Assembly: GCA_963666115.2 (NCBI GenBank) | Contig: CAXXET010000006.1 | Location: 448,001-512,000, forward strand | DNA: 64,000 bases | Reading direction: 5' to 3' | Source: Dehalococcoidia bacterium | Lineage (GTDB): Bacteria > Chloroflexota > Dehalococcoidia > UBA6926 | Shown here: one piece after another, positions 22,071 through 59,146 of the stretch | Position numbering within the stretch: position 1 is the stretch's first letter | Layout: each line of letters begins with the position of its first letter | Position numbers and translations under genes: made by a program | The notes under the pieces: generated by a model | Databases searched by the model: none | What the model saw: the letters and a program-made list of their open reading frames with translations, nothing else | What the model was told of the DNA's origin: nothing

Positions 22071-22880
22071 TTAGGCGTCTTTGATGGCGGCTTCGATCTT
22101 GTCTGTGATGTCGAGACCGTTTTGCAGGGGCTGATTGTTCGCGTCTCTTACCAGCCGGTCGTCGCCGATTTTGACCCTGCCGTTGGCGATTTGGCGTAAG
22201 GCTTCTACAAGGGTGTGAGGTTCACGGCGGAGGCCCTCCTCTCGGATTGTTGTGAAGAGGGGGTGGGATTCGCTGTGCGCGGCGCGGATATCGTCGATTG
22301 ATTGGCCTTGGATGCCTTGCCACAGCGTGTCGAATTCCGGCCCGCGGATTGGGAAGTGGCAATAGGCGATTACGGGCCCCTTGTCTACCTCTACCGTCGA
22401 TAGTTGCACCATGACGCCGGACTCGGTGGCGTCGTTCGCCATAAGCTCCCAGATGACGTCCTGCCATGCGCCTACGGGGCCACCGGGGAGGGCGGGGTGG
22501 AGGTTGAGGGCTGGAAACGCGCTGACGATGTCCTCGCTGACGATGAGCATGAGGCCGGCGAAGACAAGAGCATCGACGGGTCGGCCTTGAAGGATGGACA
22601 GCAGGTCGGCGTTGTAGCGGTCCCGCCAGGCAGGGTCGTTGTCGGGGCTGTGGCGGTAGTCGCGGAGGGAGTGGGAAATGGTGGTGAGGCCGTAGCTCTC
22701 CGCCTGTTCAAGGAACGCATCGCTGCCGTCCGCTTCGCCGCGCGCGCGAGTGCAAAGGACGTAGTCGATGGATGCGTTGAGCCCACCGTTGGAGATTGCG
22801 TGGTGCGCGGCGGCAAGGAGTCCCCGCGAGCCGGGGCCGCGTCCGGTGGATAGCCAGCCGAGGCGGAGGGATTTCGGCAT
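22071..22880 (-). CDS. purN: Phosphoribosylglycinamide formyltransferase (long Dehalococcoidia-style form)
   Basis: STGRG, LNLHPALP, GVMV...VD.GPV formyltransferase motifs. Confidence 0.8.
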   Translation of the reverse strand: MPKSLRLGWLSTGRGPGSRGLLAAAHHAISNGGLNASIDYVLCTRARGEADGSDAFLEQAESYGLTTISHSLRDYRHSPDNDPAWRDRYNADLLSILQGRPVDALVFAGLMLIVSEDIVSAFPALNLHPALPGGPVGAWQDVIWELMANDATESGVMVQLSTVEVDKGPVIAYCHFPIRGPEFDTLWQGIQGQSIDDIRAAHSESHPLFTTIREEGLRREPHTLVEALRQIANGRVKIGDDRLVRDANNQPLQNGLDITDKIEAAIKDA

Positions 22881-49463: not shown

Positions 49464-50962
49464 TAGTCGTTCGCCGCCCACGCGCGGGCTGCGTCTACGA
49501 TGCCGTTCGCGGTGTGTTCAGCGGCCTCAACCGTGACGGTTAGCCCGACCTCCTCCGCGCCGCGTGACGTCGTTGGGCCGGCGGAGATGAACGGAATGCC
49601 GTCCAGGTGTGAGGCGTCCGCGCCAAGCGCCGTGACCAGGTTGCGGGCCGTCGACGGGCTGGTGAGGATAATCCCGTCGATGCCGCGCTCCATGGCCTCG
49701 CGGGCGCGTTCCGCGAGAGCCGGGCCGGCCATCGTCCGGTACACGACGACGGGATGAGGCTCAAGCCCGCGTTCGCGCAGGGCGTCGGGCAGGGCATCGT
49801 CCGCGAGGTTGCCGCGCGGCAGGAGAATGGCGTCCCCCGGTTGAGCGGCGGCTGCGATGGCGTCCGCCAATCCAACGCTGTTGTAGCGTTCCGGCATGGT
49901 GTCGTGCCTCAGCCCGTGCCGGTTCAACGCGGCGGCGGTGGCGGGGCCGATGGCGGCAAGCCGCGCGCCGGACAGACTGCGCCCATCGCGCCCGGTTGCC
50001 AGTAGGCGCCGCATGAAATAATCGACGCCGTTGACGCTGGTGAACGCGATGAAGTGGAAGCGCGGCGCGTCATCGAGCGCCGCATCCATGTCCGACTGCT
50101 CCTCCGCCTCTGCGAAAGCGACTGCGGGGACGTGGACGACTTCCGCGCCCGCGTCGTCCAGCATCGTGATCAGCTCCGCCGCCCGCGCCTCTCCCCGCAG
50201 AACCATGAGGCGGCGGCCAAACAGGGGCCTCTTCTCCAGCCACGCGATGCGGTCGCGGAGGCTGACGACGTGGCCGCACACGAGCAGCGCGGGCGCCTGG
50301 GCGCCGATGTCCGCGGCCTTGCCCGCAATCGTTCCCAGGGTGGCGACGGTCGTGCGCTGCTGTGACGTTGTGGCGCGTTCGATGAGCGCGGCGGGAATAT
50401 CGTCCGCCCAGCCGTCCGCTTTGAGAGATTCGACAACGGCGGCGAGAGTGCGGACGCCCATGAGGACGATGGCCGTTTCGCGCCCCGCCCCCGTGTCCGG
50501 CGGCTCTCCCGCCGCGCCCTGCCCGGTGAGGATGCGGACGGCGGAGGCATGGTGGCGGTCTGTTGGCGGGATGCCGGCGTAGGCGGGGCCGGCAAGCGCG
50601 GACGTGACGCCGGGGACGACGTCAAAGTCGACGCCCGCCTCCGCAAGGGCTGTGGCCTCCTCGCCGCCGCGTCCGAAGAGGAACGGATCGCCTCCCTTGA
50701 GGCGGACGACGCGCTTCCCGTTGCGGGCGCGGTCTACAAGGGTCTGGTTGATCGTTTGTTGGAGGCTGTGGCCGGAGGATGGATGCTTGCCGACGTTGAT
50801 CAGTTCAGCGCCGGAGCGCGCTTCGGCCAGCAACGAAGGGTTGACGAGCCTGTCATAGACGATGACGTCCGCGCGGCGGAGCAGACGCGCGCCGCGCACG
50901 GTGATCAGCCCCGGATCGCCCGGCCCCGCGCCCACCAGGTGGACGATGCCGCTCTCAGCCAC
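49463..50962 (-). CDS. cobA: Uroporphyrinogen-III C-methyltransferase / uroporphyrinogen-III synthase fusion
   Basis: GAGPGDP.LIT, RLKGGDPF.FGRGGEE; then HemD motifs FTS.NGV, AIGP.T, TSPS. Confidence 0.93.
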   Translation of the reverse strand: MAESGIVHLVGAGPGDPGLITVRGARLLRRADVIVYDRLVNPSLLAEARSGAELINVGKHPSSGHSLQQTINQTLVDRARNGKRVVRLKGGDPFLFGRGGEEATALAEAGVDFDVVPGVTSALAGPAYAGIPPTDRHHASAVRILTGQGAAGEPPDTGAGRETAIVLMGVRTLAAVVESLKADGWADDIPAALIERATTSQQRTTVATLGTIAGKAADIGAQAPALLVCGHVVSLRDRIAWLEKRPLFGRRLMVLRGEARAAELITMLDDAGAEVVHVPAVAFAEAEEQSDMDAALDDAPRFHFIAFTSVNGVDYFMRRLLATGRDGRSLSGARLAAIGPATAAALNRHGLRHDTMPERYNSVGLADAIAAAAQPGDAILLPRGNLADDALPDALRERGLEPHPVVVYRTMAGPALAERAREAMERGIDGIILTSPSTARNLVTALGADASHLDGIPFISAGPTTSRGAEEVGLTVTVEAAEHTANGIVDAARAWAAND

Positions 50963-51596
50963 TGCTCCCGTCCGTCAGCAGGGCCACAAGACGATCCCGC
51001 AGACCGGCCTCATCGCCGGCGGTGATCATGGCGCGCGTCTCGTGGTCATTCAGCGCGTTCTGCCAGCGGCCTGACGGCGGCCTTTTGCCATCCCGCCGTA
51101 ATCCCTCTCGCACACCAGCGAGAACGTCCAACAACATGCCATATTCCGCAGGCAATGCCTCATCAATCTCCCGGCGCAGGAACGACGCCATCGCGGGGCT
51201 GCGGCCATTTGTTGAGATGGCAACCGTCGCGTCGCCGCGCTTGACGAGGGCGGGGTAGATCCATGTGCAGAGGTCGGTGATGTCCACGACGTTGAGGAGG
51301 CATTTTTCACGCTCCGCCTCCTCGCGGATGTGCTCGCTGAGCGGGCGGTCGTGGGTTGTGGCTGAGATGGCCAGGAACGCGCCCGCAAGATCGCCGGCCT
51401 CGTAGCCGCGGGAGCGCAGTGTAATCTCGCCGCGTTCGGCCATTTCGGTGAATCGGGGACGCTCCCGGGGGCTAATGACGGTAACGACAGCGCCCGCCTC
51501 GACGAGCGCGCCCGCCTTCGTCTGCGCCTCATCATCGTCGCCGATGACGACGCAATTCCTGCCGCGCAGGTCAAGGTAGACGGGAAAGTAACCCAT
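50955..51596 (-). CDS. Precorrin-2 dehydrogenase/sirohydrochlorin ferrochelatase (CysG N-terminal/Met8-like)
   Basis: YFPVYLDL.GR.CVVIG, NVVD, AIST.G.SP; start ATG 51596. Confidence 0.88.
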   Translation of the reverse strand: MGYFPVYLDLRGRNCVVIGDDDEAQTKAGALVEAGAVVTVISPRERPRFTEMAERGEITLRSRGYEAGDLAGAFLAISATTHDRPLSEHIREEAEREKCLLNVVDITDLCTWIYPALVKRGDATVAISTNGRSPAMASFLRREIDEALPAEYGMLLDVLAGVREGLRRDGKRPPSGRWQNALNDHETRAMITAGDEAGLRDRLVALLTDGSSG

Positions 51597-51630
51597 GCCG
51601 CGCCCTCGTGTAGCAGGCCGGGGCCCCTGC

Positions 51631-52488
51631 CTACGACCCTGTGGCGGCGGCCACGGACTCTTGGGCGGGCTGGGAAGCAAAATGGTCGGCCAGCGCAAGC
51701 ACCAGCGGGCCCATCTTGGGATTGACCGGCTCCACGCGCGGCTCCACGCCATGCTCGCGCAGCGCCCGCGTGCAGACGGGGCCGACAGACGCGACGATGA
51801 TTCCCGATGACAGCGCCTCACGAAGCTCGTCGGCAAGACCAACCTGCTCTGCGATGCGGAAGAGGTTGTGCGCCTGCGACTGCGTGGTCAGCATCACCGC
51901 GTCCACGTCCTGCGCGAGCATAAGCGCGATCGCGTCGACGACGGGCCGCGTATCCTCCGGCAGTTGCCAGGAGTACAGCGATACTTCAAGGACGTCCGCG
52001 CCCAGTGCCTGGAGCTCCCCGCGCAGCCACGCGTTCACCTCGCCATAGTGTTGGAGGGAGACGCGCTTGCCGCTCAGATCGATGTCAGATTCCTTGAGCG
52101 CCGCCAGCAGGTCCTCGGACGTGTATGGCGACGGCGAGACGAGCGCTATCGGCACATTGAGCGGCTTGAGGACCGCCACGGGCTTCGGGCCGCGGCAGAT
52201 GACGGTCGTTTCGCGCAAGGCGCCCAGGAACTCATCCTTGCGGCCAAGTTGATCCGCTGCGTTGATGAGGGCGCGCGCGCCAACTCCCGTGAGGAAGACC
52301 GCTGCCTGAATCGTGTAGGCGCAGATGCCGTCGATAACATCACGCACATCCTGCTGCATGGGGAGCGCCGCCTCGCGCAGAGCAGGGGCGCTGATGGCCT
52401 CTCCGCCGTGGCGGGCCACAAGGTTGCCGAGTTCAGAGGGCATTCGCGCCTCAAGGACCACGATTCGCCGTCCCTTAAGGTCCGCCAC
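51631..52488 (-). CDS. hemD: Stand-alone uroporphyrinogen-III synthase (HemD-like)
   Basis: TGVG, RGPKP, Y.W.LP, SVGPV..AL. Confidence 0.8.
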   Translation of the reverse strand: MADLKGRRIVVLEARMPSELGNLVARHGGEAISAPALREAALPMQQDVRDVIDGICAYTIQAAVFLTGVGARALINAADQLGRKDEFLGALRETTVICRGPKPVAVLKPLNVPIALVSPSPYTSEDLLAALKESDIDLSGKRVSLQHYGEVNAWLRGELQALGADVLEVSLYSWQLPEDTRPVVDAIALMLAQDVDAVMLTTQSQAHNLFRIAEQVGLADELREALSSGIIVASVGPVCTRALREHGVEPRVEPVNPKMGPLVLALADHFASQPAQESVAAATGS

Positions 52489-55705: not shown

Positions 55706-56278
55706 CTAGGTTGCCGCCCCCGCCAGCTCTTTGCCCGCGCCGGAGGGGATGATGCCCCGCTGCTCCAGCGCGTCCAGCACCTTGCCGAGGCTCTCTTCGA
55801 CCTCTTCCTGCTCCGTGTCGACGAGAACCTCGGGGGTCAGCGGCTCCTCGTAGGGATCGGAAACGCCGGTGAAGTTCTGGATCTCGCCCTTGAGCGCCTT
55901 TTCGTAGAGGCCCTTGACGTCGCGCCTGACAAGCTCATCGAGCGAGGCGTGAACGTGGACTTCAATGAAATCGCCGATCTGCTCGCGCACCTCATCGCGC
56001 ACTTCGCGGTAGGGGGAGATGGCGGACACGATACTGACGACGCCGTTGCGGGTCAGCAGGTCGCTGACGAACCCGATGCGGCGGATGTTGGTGTCACGGT
56101 CTTCCTTGCTGAATCCGAGCCCCTTGCTGAGGTTCGTGCGAACGACGTCGCCGTCCAGCAGTTCGGACTTGACGCCATGGTCGCGCAGAACGGCCAAAAG
56201 GCGCTCCGCGATGGTGCTCTTGCCGGCGCCCGAAAGGCCGGTGAACCAAACTGTCACTCCCTGGTGGTTGGTGGTCAC
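55706..56278 (-). CDS. cysC: Adenylyl-sulfate kinase
   Basis: [36 protein letters not shown]...PYE; GTG start with SD AGGAGG. Confidence 0.96.
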
Positions 56279-56301
56279 TCTCCAATTCCTCCTCTTATTC
56301 C

Positions 56302-57057
56302 TTACGCCGTCGTTGAAACAACCTTGCCCGTCTCCGGGTCGATGTGAATGCCGCATTCGACCTTGTCCTCGAAATCGGACCAGCGGCCCGCCCGCGGGTC
56401 CTCCCCCGGCGCAACCGCCCGCGTGCAATTGGTGCAGCCGATGCTGGGATAGCCGCGGTCGTGCAGGTCGTTGTACGGGATGTTGTTCTCGCGGATGTAG
56501 TTCCAAACATCGTCCTCGGTCCAGTTGGCGAGCGGGTTGACCTTGATGAGGTCGAACTTGGAGTCCCACGCGACGATGGCGACGTCCTTGCGCGTATCGC
56601 CCTGGTCGCGGCGGAGTCCGGCGATCCATGCCTTCTGGCCGGCGAGCGCGCGTTGGTTCGGCTCAACCTTGCGGATTTCGCAGCAGAGATCGGGATCGAC
56701 TTTCCACAACTCCGGCCCGTGCAGTTCGGCCTGCCGCGCAACGGACACGTCCGTCTTGAACCCGATCGGGTGGATGCCGTAGCGGCGGGCGGTCTTGTCC
56801 TTGAGGTTGTGCGTCTCCGGGAACAGGAAGTCCGTGTCCACGTAGAACACGGGCACGTCCGGGTTGATGTTCATGGCCATGTCGAGCAGGACCATGCCGG
56901 ACACGCCGCCGAAGCTGCAGGCGAGCGTGATGTCCGGGAAGAAGTTTTCGATTGCCCAGCGGACGATCTCTCGCGGGTGGGCGTTCTCAAGCTGCGCGCT
57001 GACTTCCGCCAGCCGCTCCTCCGTCCATTCCGTCCGAATCGCTTCCAAGGTTGCCAT
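56302..57057 (-). CDS. cysH: APS/PAPS reductase, [4Fe-4S] type
   Basis: [37 protein letters not shown]. Confidence 0.95.
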
Positions 57058-57120: not shown

Positions 57121-57155
57121 ATAAGAAAACCGCCCCGTTGCTTGGTGGGGCGGTT
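57121..57155 (-). terminator. Intrinsic terminator inside the cysH leader (attenuator)
   Basis: Minus strand AACCGCCCC-ACCAAGCAAC-GGGGCGGTT followed by TTCTTAT, 63 nt upstream of the cysH start. Confidence 0.8.
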
Positions 57156-57214
57156 GATGCGCTTATGACTGCGTCGTGGAGTCTGCGCGCTCGTGTCCGT
57201 GAGGCCTGCTGCGT

Positions 57215-57325
57215 CTAGCGCGCGGCCTCCCGCCCCGGGACGGGCATGTAACACGAGCAGGTCACTGCGGCGCTCAGCGCCACCGCGACTACTGAAGGAC
57301 TGTGTGTATGGGCGTAGGTATTCAT
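57215..57325 (-). CDS. Putative 36-aa Cys/Met-containing attenuation leader peptide
   Basis: Hand translation MNTYAHTHSPSVVAVALSAAVTCSCYMPVPGREAAR*; lies between the promoter and the leader terminator. Confidence 0.7.
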   Translation of the reverse strand: MNTYAHTHSPSVVAVALSAAVTCSCYMPVPGREAAR

Positions 57326-57349
57326 CGTTCGCACGATTTGCTTATGGGA

Positions 57350-57378
57350 ACTATAAGCGGATGGCAATTGAGTGTCAA
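57350..57378 (-). promoter_or_regulatory. sigma70 promoter of the cys/siroheme operon
   Basis: Minus strand TTGACA-17 bp-TATAGT. Confidence 0.8.
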
Positions 57379-57410
57379 TAGGCTTGTGACGCCTGTCACG
57401 AACCCCACCC

Positions 57411-58118
57411 CTACATATCCGGCTCGCTCACGTTCGCCCGCATGGCCTCCGCCTCCTCCAGGAGCCGCGCAAACAGCGGCCAGATGTCCTCATCGGTTGG
57501 GTCCATTGTTGAGATGGACATCACGCGGTGCAGCACCCCGCTGCTCACCCCCACAGTCTCGGCCCCGCCGGCGTCCGGCAGCGCGACGCCCAGCGCCCGC
57601 GCCACAAGCTCCGCCTGAGTAAGCCCCTTCTCGTCGTTGGGGCAGATCACCATTGCGCTGCCCTCGTGGAGGAGGGTTGTTTCGGCCTCGGTGCGAGACA
57701 GGGTTACCTCGATGAGGCGTTGGGGGCGGGCGAGGAGTTTCTCGGCGTAGTCCCAGGCTTTCTCGGTGTAGGGGGTGGTTTTGTCGAGCAGGAGGCAGGG
57801 TTCGCCGGTTTGGGCGGGGTCGTCCAGGCTCCATTCGCCGTCGGAGTCGAGCGGCCGGGTGCGGATGCCGTCGTCGCCGCCGAAGATCAGCAACGCGTGC
57901 CCCTCGCCGGAGTCCTCGACGATGGCGGCGTAGGCGGGGCAGGGGCCGTCCTCGCTCCAGCCGGTGACGTCAACCATGGCGAGTTCGCCGCGGATGCCCG
58001 GCGCCTCGACGCTGACGACCTCCTTCGGTTCCTCAACCACGCTGAACACGCGGTGCAGCGAGTAGTCGCAGTTATTCCCCGCCTCTACCTCAACCTCAAT
58101 AAACCTGGCCTTCGCCAC
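57411..58118 (-). CDS. Hypothetical acidic protein (235 aa)
   Basis: Long ORF with SD AAGGAG before GTG and genome-like codon usage; no family recognised. Confidence 0.75.
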   Translation of the reverse strand: MAKARFIEVEVEAGNNCDYSLHRVFSVVEEPKEVVSVEAPGIRGELAMVDVTGWSEDGPCPAYAAIVEDSGEGHALLIFGGDDGIRTRPLDSDGEWSLDDPAQTGEPCLLLDKTTPYTEKAWDYAEKLLARPQRLIEVTLSRTEAETTLLHEGSAMVICPNDEKGLTQAELVARALGVALPDAGGAETVGVSSGVLHRVMSISTMDPTDEDIWPLFARLLEEAEAMRANVSEPDM

Positions 58119-58174: not shown

Positions 58175-58537
58175 TGGTGGAGGCGGGGGGGAGTTGAACC
58201 CCCCGTCCAAAGGCGGCTCCGGATGCGGCGCTACAGGCTTAGTCGGTCTTTGGTTTCTCGCCGCTCGCGGCCCCGGCCGACAGGAATCGCGAGCAGCCAG
58301 CCGGCGATGGTCTTTCGCTGCGCGTCACCGGCTGACGCGCAGCGGCGCCCCGCTAAAATGTCGCTCCAAAACCGTCCGCAGGGGTAACGACCCGGAACGT
58401 CGCTGCCTAGTGTTTAGGCTGCGAGTGCGAGCTGATTGTCGTTGCCAGCTACTCTTTGTGCCGCGGGATTAACGAGGTCACGGCGCCTCGGCCTGCTCAC
58501 GCACCCTCGCAGACCCCTGTCGAATCCGCGCGCCCCC
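58175..58537 (-). ncRNA. ssrA: tmRNA
   Basis: 5' GGGGGCG..GGATTCGAC and 3' GGTTCAACTCC..CGCCTCCACCA tRNA-Ala-like ends; tag ORF GNDNQLALAA* at 58446..58414; next to smpB. Confidence 0.96.
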
Positions 58538-58633: not shown

Positions 58634-59146
58634 TTACCGCCGGGAGGCCAGCGCGCGCGCCATCTCGAGGTCTGCGTCTCGTTTGGCGAGGACCTGGCGC
58701 TTATCAAAGGATTTGCGCCCGCGCGCGAGGCCGAGTTGGAGCTTGGCGCGGTGCCGCGTGATGTAGAGCCGCAGCGGGATGAGAGTGTAGCCGCTGGACG
58801 TGACACGCCGGCTGAGGTCCTCGATCTGGCGGCGGCGCAGCAGGAGCTTGCGCGGGCGCGTCGGCTCATGGTTGTAGATGTTGCCTTGGGCGTACGGGGG
58901 GATGTGCATGCCGTGTATCCACACTTCGCCGTCCGTCACGCGGGCGAACGAGTGCGCGAGTGTGACGCGGCCGGCCCGTATGGACTTGATCTCCGTGCCG
59001 GTGAGGACGATGCCCGCCTCCATGCTCTCCAGGATGTCGTAGTCGAAACGGGCGCGGCGGTTGTCGGACACGAGTCGATCCCCGCCGGCGGCCTTTTCAG
59101 CCGCTGCGGGCTTTGCCCCATTCCGTCGAGCCTTTGACTTCGCCAT
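58634..59146 (-). CDS. smpB: SsrA-binding protein
   Basis: NRRARFDY, EAGIVLTGTEIKSIR, R.RKLLL, GRKSFDKR. Confidence 0.98.
   Translation of the reverse strand: MAKSKARRNGAKPAAAEKAAGGDRLVSDNRRARFDYDILESMEAGIVLTGTEIKSIRAGRVTLAHSFARVTDGEVWIHGMHIPPYAQGNIYNHEPTRPRKLLLRRRQIEDLSRRVTSSGYTLIPLRLYITRHRAKLQLGLARGRKSFDKRQVLAKRDADLEMARALASRR

Follow-up and report, generated by a model that had tools for sequence, protein, structure and literature searches.

How sulfate assimilation is controlled in an uncultured lineage is the question raised by a 353-nucleotide (nt) gap in a 64,000-nt stretch of DNA from a Dehalococcoidia bacterium (contig CAXXET010000006.1, positions 448,001 to 512,000; hereafter "the window"). 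The gap lies between an open reading frame (ORF) of 235 amino acids (57411-58118) and the ATG of cysH (57057), and the minus strand carries all of the elements considered here. An earlier reading, made from the sequence alone (the "sequence-only reading"), had placed in this gap a leader-peptide attenuator sensing cysteine (Cys). The present analysis supports that interpretation: the Cys codons and the complementarity of the switching arms are conserved among related genomes, and no Rfam family matches the region. In all probability, the element attenuates transcription through a ribosome on a leader peptide, with charged tRNA-Cys as the signal.

A promoter, a short ORF and an intrinsic terminator follow one another in the gap. 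The promoter (57350..57378) consists of TTGACA (57378-57373), a 17-nt spacer and TATAGT (57355-57350), matches the consensus at 11 of 12 positions, and was the best sigma-70-like site in a 10-kb promoter scan (52-62 kb); both of its hexamers are conserved in the 20 orthologous leaders that were aligned. The leader ATG is found 24-27 nt past the -10 hexamer in all 23 leaders known (24 nt in the window). With the transcription start placed by the position of the promoter, the 5' untranslated region of the leader ORF would be roughly 17 nt long. The ORF (57215..57325) comprises 36 codons from the ATG at 57325 to a TAG stop at 57217-57215 and encodes the peptide MNTYAHTHSPSVVAVALSAAVTCSCYMPVPGREAAR, in which two Cys codons, TGC (57259-57257) and TGT (57253-57251), form a C-S-C cluster. 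In this genome, 0.72% of the codons in long ORFs are for Cys, and TGT is the rarer of the two Cys codons (share 0.17). The terminator (57123..57155) is built from region 3 (CCGCCCC, 57153-57147), a 10-nt loop, region 4 (GGGGCGG, 57136-57130) and the U-tract TTTTCTT (57129-57123). Its hairpin has a predicted energy of -17.2 kcal/mol, its helix is 97.5% paired over the 23 leaders, and a GC stem of 7-9 base pairs (bp) with a U-tract is present in 23/23. The standard terminator scan, with a loop limit of 8 nt, misses this 10-nt-loop structure, which was detected by a separate genome scan and by the minimum-free-energy (MFE) fold. The near-consensus promoter, the 36-codon ORF with clustered Cys codons and the terminator before cysH are thus all present where the sequence-only reading had put them, and the ORF with its Cys cluster and the terminator are each kept in every one of the 23 orthologous leaders.

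BLAST detected leader DNA in 20 of the genus's 21 other genomes (71-86% identity) and in none from outside it. With R1, a covariance model built on the leader core, the leader was recovered in all 21, as well as in one genome of a sister genus (G022); among the 143 genomes outside the genus within a class-wide sample of 151, R1 returned no match. Orthologous cysH (at least 76% identity) occurs within the order in the 22 genomes of the genus (that of the window, G000, included) and in G022, and these 23 are exactly the leader-bearing genomes. The seven other genomes of the order had no cysH match or only distant paralogues of phosphoadenosine-phosphosulfate (PAPS) reductase. The gene order in G022 is leader, a gene for a TauE/SafE-family permease, cysH; what the element accompanies is thus the operon, not cysH in itself. 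One other R1 match from the order search (G028) was rejected as a terminator look-alike without an ORF. A pattern scan of genome contigs gave 16 loci, 13 of which are in metagenome-assembled-genome records of Dehalococcoidia/Chloroflexota, and those that were compared carry known leader sequences; the remaining three, in other phyla, had no terminator and were taken as chance. The pattern scan of metagenome contigs gave three loci, all of unrelated sequence.

The frame that holds the Cys codons is open for 34-39 codons from an invariant ATG in 23/23 leaders, and the alternative frames carry stops (+1 in 23/23 leaders, +2 in 20/23). Indels upstream of GGGGCGG (region 2, 57230..57236) comprise a 6-nt deletion in one clade, a 3-nt deletion in L019 and a 3-nt insertion in L020, L041, L042 and L043; all are multiples of three, and the reading frame is therefore preserved. 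Before the Cys block, extra nucleotide states numbered 35 at third codon positions, 21 at first and 19 at second. The stop codon varies in identity (TAG/TAA) and in position, and the frame never opens into the terminator. Every Cys of each of the 23 peptides falls in one cluster of 2-4 Cys, and the variation consists of whole Cys codons: C-S-C-Y-M in most leaders, C-S-C-M in L019, C-S-C-C-M in L016 and L018, C-S-C-C-Y-M in L041, C-S-C-C-S-M in L042, C-S-C-C-C-M in L020 and C-L-C-C-C-M in G022. In the leaders that were read out codon by codon, the Cys codons after the first TGC were mostly TGT. Parts of the peptide are also conserved (SPS, RRAAVTCSC and GRE). Judged from this comparison, the leader reading frame is evidently under selection, and its conservation together with the in-frame indels argues for translation of the ORF.

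Four segments downstream of the Cys codons have pairing options like those of regions 1-4 in the trp attenuator. Region 1 (CCCGUC, 57239..57244) is the 5' arm of a local protector hairpin, CCCGTC-CCGG-GGCGGG (57244-57229), with a predicted energy of -9.7 kcal/mol and a helix that is 90.4% paired; a ribosome that stalls on the second Cys codon could reach region 1. Region 2 has two alternative partners, region 1 and the terminator 5' arm (region 3), and its pairing with the latter forms the antiterminator. The 2:3 pairing is a 7-bp G-C duplex of -18.0 kcal/mol that closes a junction over two conserved hairpins, D and E; its helix is 98.8% paired over the 23 leaders, and six of its seven pairs are identical in all of them. 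The terminator state as a whole is 95.2% paired by the same count. Region 2 is the only 7-nt complement to the terminator 5' arm in the whole leader, and a 7-nt complement to that arm within 27 nt after the Cys codons was matched by 167 of 20000 composition-matched shuffles. The GGGGCG of region 2 is invariant in 23/23 leaders, synonymous third positions included, such that its GGG and CGG codons never change, even synonymously. In two leaders (L042 and G022), the outermost terminator pairs are lost, but the CC in region 3 to which region 2 pairs is retained. The synonymous invariance of region 2 and the retention of this CC point to an RNA-level constraint on the 2:3 pairing. Region 2 starts 14 or 17 nt past the first base of the last Cys codon in 23/23 leaders, whatever the number of Cys codons, which is just past the 3' edge of a ribosome that has the last Cys codon in its A site.

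Other helices lie around these segments. Hairpin A (57261..57289, -20 kcal/mol) lies inside the ORF upstream of the Cys codons; its helix is 96.4% paired, with one pair changed on both sides, and it is a possible pause hairpin for RNA polymerase. Hairpin D (GAGGCC...GGCCUC, 57201..57229), which has the leader stop codon in its loop, is 96.4% paired, with two of six pairs changed on both sides; compensatory changes are limited to hairpins A and D, three pairs in total. Downstream of hairpin D, the segment ACACGAGC (57189..57196) is predicted to pair with the Cys-codon segment GCUCGUGU. This pairing, stem B, encloses regions 1 and 2 and hairpin D, in a domain with a predicted energy of -39.9 kcal/mol. 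A pairing of the Cys-codon segment 3' of hairpin D was predicted in 21/23 leaders; in the two exceptions (L042 and G022), the whole of region 2 pairs with local sequence upstream of it, apparently with the Cys-codon segment itself. Hairpin E (GCGC...GCGC, 57159..57188) has a helix that is 93.5% paired and an inner stem that, by eye in the alignment, differs by clade (GACU/AGUC, CCUG/CAGG or CUCUG/CAGA). The strings of the protector hairpin, of the GGGGCGG/CCGCCCC antiterminator option and of the segment past the stop that is complementary to the Cys codons, all of which had been noted from the window alone, are present at the places given for them.

Folding and ribosome masking were carried out on 20 aligned leaders, while pair counts and sequestration were scored on all 23. 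The leader RNA folds better than its dinucleotide shuffles (z = -2.97). When each state was forced on the whole leader, the terminator gave -90.3 kcal/mol and the antiterminator -84.8 kcal/mol; in this model, they are two near-isoenergetic, mutually exclusive folds. RNAalifold, given the 20-sequence alignment, picked the antiterminator unprompted, plus a 1:4 pairing. The full-length naked RNA had the terminator in its MFE structure in 20/20 leaders, and in pre-terminator RNA without region 3, region 2 was locally sequestered in 23/23. For masking, the RNA was cut before region 4, 30 nt were blocked around the A site, and the antiterminator was deemed favored when its probability exceeded 0.5. 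It was favored in 20/20 leaders with the ribosome at the second Cys codon, in 19/20 with the ribosome one codon later, and in 2/20 with the ribosome at the stop codon. Equilibrium folding as modeled here would thus separate a ribosome stalled at Cys from one positioned over region 2; it would not establish that untranslated RNA terminates.

From these elements we infer translation of the ORF, stalling at the Cys codons, coupling to RNA polymerase and a response to cysteine, in the following manner. Transcription would start ca. 7 nt past TATAGT, and a ribosome would translate the 36-codon leader ORF while RNA polymerase proceeds. When Cys-tRNA is plentiful, the ribosome would pass the Cys codons and region 2 and reach the stop codon in the loop of hairpin D. 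Region 2 would then be covered by the ribosome or quickly recaptured by region 1 and by the stem of the Cys-codon segment with ACACGAGC; region 3 would pair with region 4, the terminator would form, and transcription would stop ca. 65 nt before cysH. When Cys-tRNA is scarce, the ribosome would stall with a Cys codon in the A site, masking the Cys-codon segment and region 1 and leaving region 2 free. Region 2 would then pair with region 3 across hairpins D and E, no terminator would form, and the cysH-cysC-sat-sulfite reductase-siroheme operon would be transcribed.

Similar arrangements were sought upstream of cysH homologues in 53 further Dehalococcoidia genomes by a generic scan that extended up to 1.5-2.5 kb. 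Most of these genomes have neither a terminator nor a Cys ORF there, and the design is therefore not universal in the class. One genome from a different family (G063, L097 112-300) has a near-leaderless ORF, MNATVPANRVCCMCCCTPSRGRDARRF... (MNATVPANRVCCMCCCTPSRGRDA..., VCCMCCC), with five Cys in six codons, which starts ca. 10 nt past a -10-like box. A strong terminator (AAAACCCCUCGAG / CUUGAGGGGUUUU) follows this poly-Cys ORF, and then TauE and cysH. Located 12 nt past the last Cys codon, CGAGGG is the only 6-nt complement in the leader to the terminator 5' arm; it is held in a local hairpin, the 5' arm of which abuts the Cys codons. The four segments differ in sequence from those of the window, and their arrangement is alike (1:2 / 2:3 / 3:4). 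Although a single genome, G063 comes closest to showing a compensatory change in the 2:3 pairing. No other genome of its family was in the set, and no relatives of it were found among 40 genomes.

Two further cases came from the same scan. In G226 (L119, ca. 2288-2440), a short ORF with the cluster C-F-C, MSGSGCFCASLPGQVMPWQGLRVRS, has a perfect 11-bp hairpin, and a 12-bp terminator follows 75 nt before cysH; as a full attenuator this locus was rejected, no clear antiterminator having been found. Seven genomes of the family f36 (L129 2261-2445; L123, L124, L131, L132, L134 and L135) have a conserved leader of ca. 150 nt upstream of cysH, in which a GGUGGGG box precedes a mini-ORF of 10-12 codons that starts with TTG or ATG and includes one or two Cys codons. 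The mini-ORF stops right at the 5' arm of a terminator (CAGCCUG...CAGGCUG, followed by U7) that is conserved as well. The f36 leader may sense Cys as well, in a second way, or it may be an RNA switch of another kind. It is conceivable, though we hold it only tentatively and would sooner doubt it than assert it, that several Dehalococcoidia families (that of the window and those of G063, G226 and f36) have placed a Cys-codon ORF and a terminator before cysH or TauE-cysH, each with sequences of its own, such that the classical terminator/antiterminator mechanism would have been extended to cysteine in Chloroflexota and would not be confined to one genus. If so, Cys-tRNA sensed by the ribosome would be a recurrent regulator of sulfate assimilation in this lineage, for which we know of no described regulator of the CysB/CymR type, and it may act together with a factor at the palindrome described below.

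Several observations weigh against the attenuator interpretation or limit it. No obvious Shine-Dalgarno sequence precedes the leader ATG in the clade of the window, and a small hairpin includes or adjoins this ATG; in most members the Cys codons number no more than two and are not adjacent. Both caveats had been raised by the sequence-only reading, and both hold. The stop codons of L020 and L041 are further downstream, and a ribosome at the stop therefore leaves region 2 uncovered in these leaders. Short ORFs with two Cys within five codons are also not rare in this GC-rich genome: a genome scan listed 119 strict terminator-like sites and 61 combinations of a short ORF, a terminator and a gene, and six of the 61 had such a pair. 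The single-genome observation is therefore only suggestive, and the weight rests on conservation in 23 genomes. (When other leader-peptide attenuators were sought in the genome, two short ORFs with Trp clusters were found, one before a gene for a thiamine-pyrophosphate enzyme and one inside gcvP; they were rejected as not being trp leaders.) The complementarity in G063 was reached by 1323 of 20000 shuffles and is weak alone.

The arms and the folding calculations also bear on this point. The comparison of orthologous leaders that the sequence-only reading had called for gave a kept Cys cluster in 23/23 and arms that are 98.8% paired, but the covariation that it had hoped for did not appear: the antiterminator and terminator arms are invariant within the family, and the support for these helices is therefore conservation and complementarity, not covariation. 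The proposed folding with and without a ribosome mask favored the antiterminator in 20/20 leaders with the mask at the second Cys codon vs. 2/20 at the stop codon, and the naked RNA cut before region 4 also favored it in 16/20. A ribosome at the first Cys codon gave the same count (16/20), and in full-length MFE structures with the ribosome at the second Cys codon, the antiterminator formed in only 8/20; folding at equilibrium is not decisive. Because the naked truncated RNA is also prone to the antiterminator, the decision must be kinetic, i.e. made by the order of folding, as in all such attenuators; the model as it stands would depend on co-transcriptional kinetics.

The near-invariance of the nucleotides from the Cys codons to hairpin D, synonymous positions included, could also be expected of an RNA switch in which a sulfur metabolite or an RNA-binding regulator controls the terminator and the ORF is a by-product of RNA conservation. 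The high degree of structure in the leader (z = -2.97, with hairpins A, D and E conserved) and the lack of a Shine-Dalgarno sequence before the ATG are in keeping with that possibility. We consider it unlikely, for the frame is open in 23/23 leaders while the other two carry stops, insertions and deletions keep the frame, the key site varies by the gain or loss of whole Cys codons, and the stop codon changes in identity and position without the frame ever opening into the terminator. Further, Rfam offers no match, and G063 has the Cys codons and the logic in common with the window but not the RNA sequence.

The conserved parts of the peptide raise a different prospect, namely that the ORF encodes a functional small Cys-containing protein in a unit of its own, complete with a strong promoter and a strong terminator, and that cysH is expressed from its own promoter or by read-through. 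This seems very unlikely: the ORF is directly upstream of and co-oriented with the sulfate-assimilation operon in all 23 genomes, even where TauE is inserted; past the terminator, no further site ahead of cysH is listed in the promoter scan; the residues conserved at the C-terminus fall where the RNA switch segments lie; a number of Cys that varies from 2 to 4 would be unusual for a structural or metal-binding motif; and a collection of about 15 billion proteins does not contain the exact leader peptide. Finally, attenuation might operate mainly through Rho, mRNA stability or translation, with the hairpin and U-tract playing a minor part. Precedents exist in Cys-sensing short ORFs that sequester the Shine-Dalgarno sequence of the next gene (10.1101/834739) and in actinobacterial Cys leaders without terminators (PMC1262725). 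Here, a canonical intrinsic terminator (-17.2 kcal/mol) is conserved in 23/23 leaders, and the ribosome-binding site of cysH is ca. 60 nt beyond it, outside the conserved alternative pairings, so that this mode of action appears most improbable. Transcription attenuation by a ribosome on the leader ORF is the interpretation retained.

The genes downstream of the leader are those of sulfate assimilation and of siroheme/tetrapyrrole synthesis. The first structural gene of the operon is cysH (56302..57057, minus strand; Pfam PAPS_reduct and NCBIfam NF002537, above cut-off). It is followed on the same strand, down to 48498, by genes for adenosine-phosphosulfate (APS) kinase, ATP sulfurylase, a NirA/Sir-type sulfite reductase, a HemD-like ORF, a siroheme-synthase-like protein that binds nicotinamide adenine dinucleotide, a uroporphyrinogen methyltransferase/HemD fusion and porphobilinogen deaminase. 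Given this gene content, "sulfate-assimilation/siroheme operon", the name used in the sequence-only reading, is a fair one. The longest ORFs of the APS-kinase, HemD-like and SirC-like genes (55706-56629 and 50955-52488, minus strand) overlap their upstream neighbors by 200-330 nt. Their true starts are probably internal; the APS-kinase domain starts at residue 123. The 235-amino-acid ORF directly upstream of the leader (57411-58118, minus strand) matched no Pfam or NCBIfam family. Its C-terminal coding sequence is conserved beside the leader in G022 and in the majority of the genomes of the genus. Also just upstream of the leader region, on the minus strand, are a transfer-messenger RNA gene (58175-58537; tag peptide GNDNQLALAA) and smpB (58634-59146).

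A palindrome, GTGACAGGCGTCAC (57386..57399, minus strand), of the form GTGAC-N4-GTCAC (GTGA-N6-TCAC), stands directly upstream of the -35 box. With a variable spacer, it is kept in the aligned regions upstream of orthologous leaders, including those of G009, G016 and G022, and the motif occurs at 55 sites genome-wide vs. ca. 23 expected from composition. It resembles the half-site arrangement of CRP/FNR-type regulators and is a candidate site for a transcription factor, which might exert control at a second level. Two tandem copies (ATCGTGAA-N4-GTCAC) were observed in a divergent intergenic region elsewhere in the genome (L082 1777-1850; G000 contig C6, ca. 22278-22350). The N-terminus of the ORF beside them is HrcA-like by eye. 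After one of the copies comes TTGAC, which is also the case at the cysH leader.

Known RNA elements were searched with the Rfam 15 covariance models. Between 56800 and 57700, at E <= 10, only two chance-level matches were returned (E = 2.6 and 4.4), both far below their gathering scores, and no family explains the terminator, a check that the sequence-only reading had named as one that could overturn it. Six related or analogous loci, including the leaders of G022, G063, G226 and f36, likewise gave no match above chance. Such leaders escape both gene callers and Rfam, as would befit a peptide missing from ca. 15 billion proteins. A complete and conserved four-segment Cys attenuator would add an amino-acid specificity to the classical mechanism, would be the first leader-peptide attenuator for Chloroflexota, and would give a first handle on the control of sulfur assimilation in uncultured sponge- and marine-associated Dehalococcoidia. 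At ca. 220 nt, the element is compact and could serve as a genetic part that responds to Cys-tRNA.

Leader-peptide attenuation, a textbook mechanism, has been described for Trp, His, Leu, Ile/Val, Thr and Phe, chiefly in Proteobacteria, Actinobacteria and some Firmicutes; trpL, hisL, leuL, thrL and pheL of E. coli are the classical examples, and Rfam holds Trp_leader and His_leader. The present element resembles these in its short ORF with clustered codons for the end product, in its 1:2 and 3:4 vs. 2:3 pairings, in a stop codon placed so that an unstalled ribosome would reach region 2, and in an intrinsic terminator before the first structural gene. It differs from them in the amino acid (cysteine), the operon (sulfate assimilation and siroheme) and the phylum (Chloroflexota). 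In addition, its long-range antiterminator closes hairpins D and E, an extra stem pairs the Cys codons with sequence past the stop, no sequence or Rfam similarity to the classical leaders was found, and no obvious Shine-Dalgarno sequence is present. With the S-box (S-adenosylmethionine-I) and T-box leaders of Firmicutes it has in common a 5' leader and a choice between terminator and antiterminator before genes of sulfur metabolism. It gives no Rfam match, however, and sensing would be performed by a ribosome on a conserved ORF, not by binding of S-adenosylmethionine or uncharged tRNA.

Closer in specificity are the Cys leaders of Actinobacteria. In the mycobacterial polycysteine leaderless short ORFs of Canestrari et al. 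(10.1101/834739), pausing at Cys codons reports on Cys-tRNA and de-represses genes of cysteine and sulfur metabolism, and two Cys codons sufficed. The action there is to expose the next gene's ribosome-binding site (echoed by PMC13236596), and the authors set their mechanism against classical terminator-based attenuation. The mycobacterial ORFs are leaderless, whereas here the ATG is 24-27 nt past the -10 hexamer and an alternative pairing competes with a canonical terminator. Comparative genomics had earlier (2005) predicted leader peptides with Cys codons upstream of actinobacterial cys operons for cysteine synthesis, and that paper is explicit that there are no terminator hairpins (PMC1262725); in the leaders studied here, terminator and antiterminator are both explicit and conserved. 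According to Naville and Gautheret (2010; PMC2965389), no leader-peptide systems outside Proteobacteria and Actinobacteria had been known until their own cases in Firmicutes. The cases for cysteine that were found in print (PMC1262725, 10.1101/834739) lack terminators and act on translation. A full-text search of one literature collection found no Cys attenuator of the terminator type and none in Chloroflexi, in agreement with the earlier remark that no terminator-based Cys attenuator had been described in Chloroflexota. By its mechanism, the element would thus belong to the class of classical attenuators; what appears to be new, as far as its sequence features indicate, is the specificity for cysteine, the phylum, the long-range antiterminator and the pairing of the Cys codons themselves.

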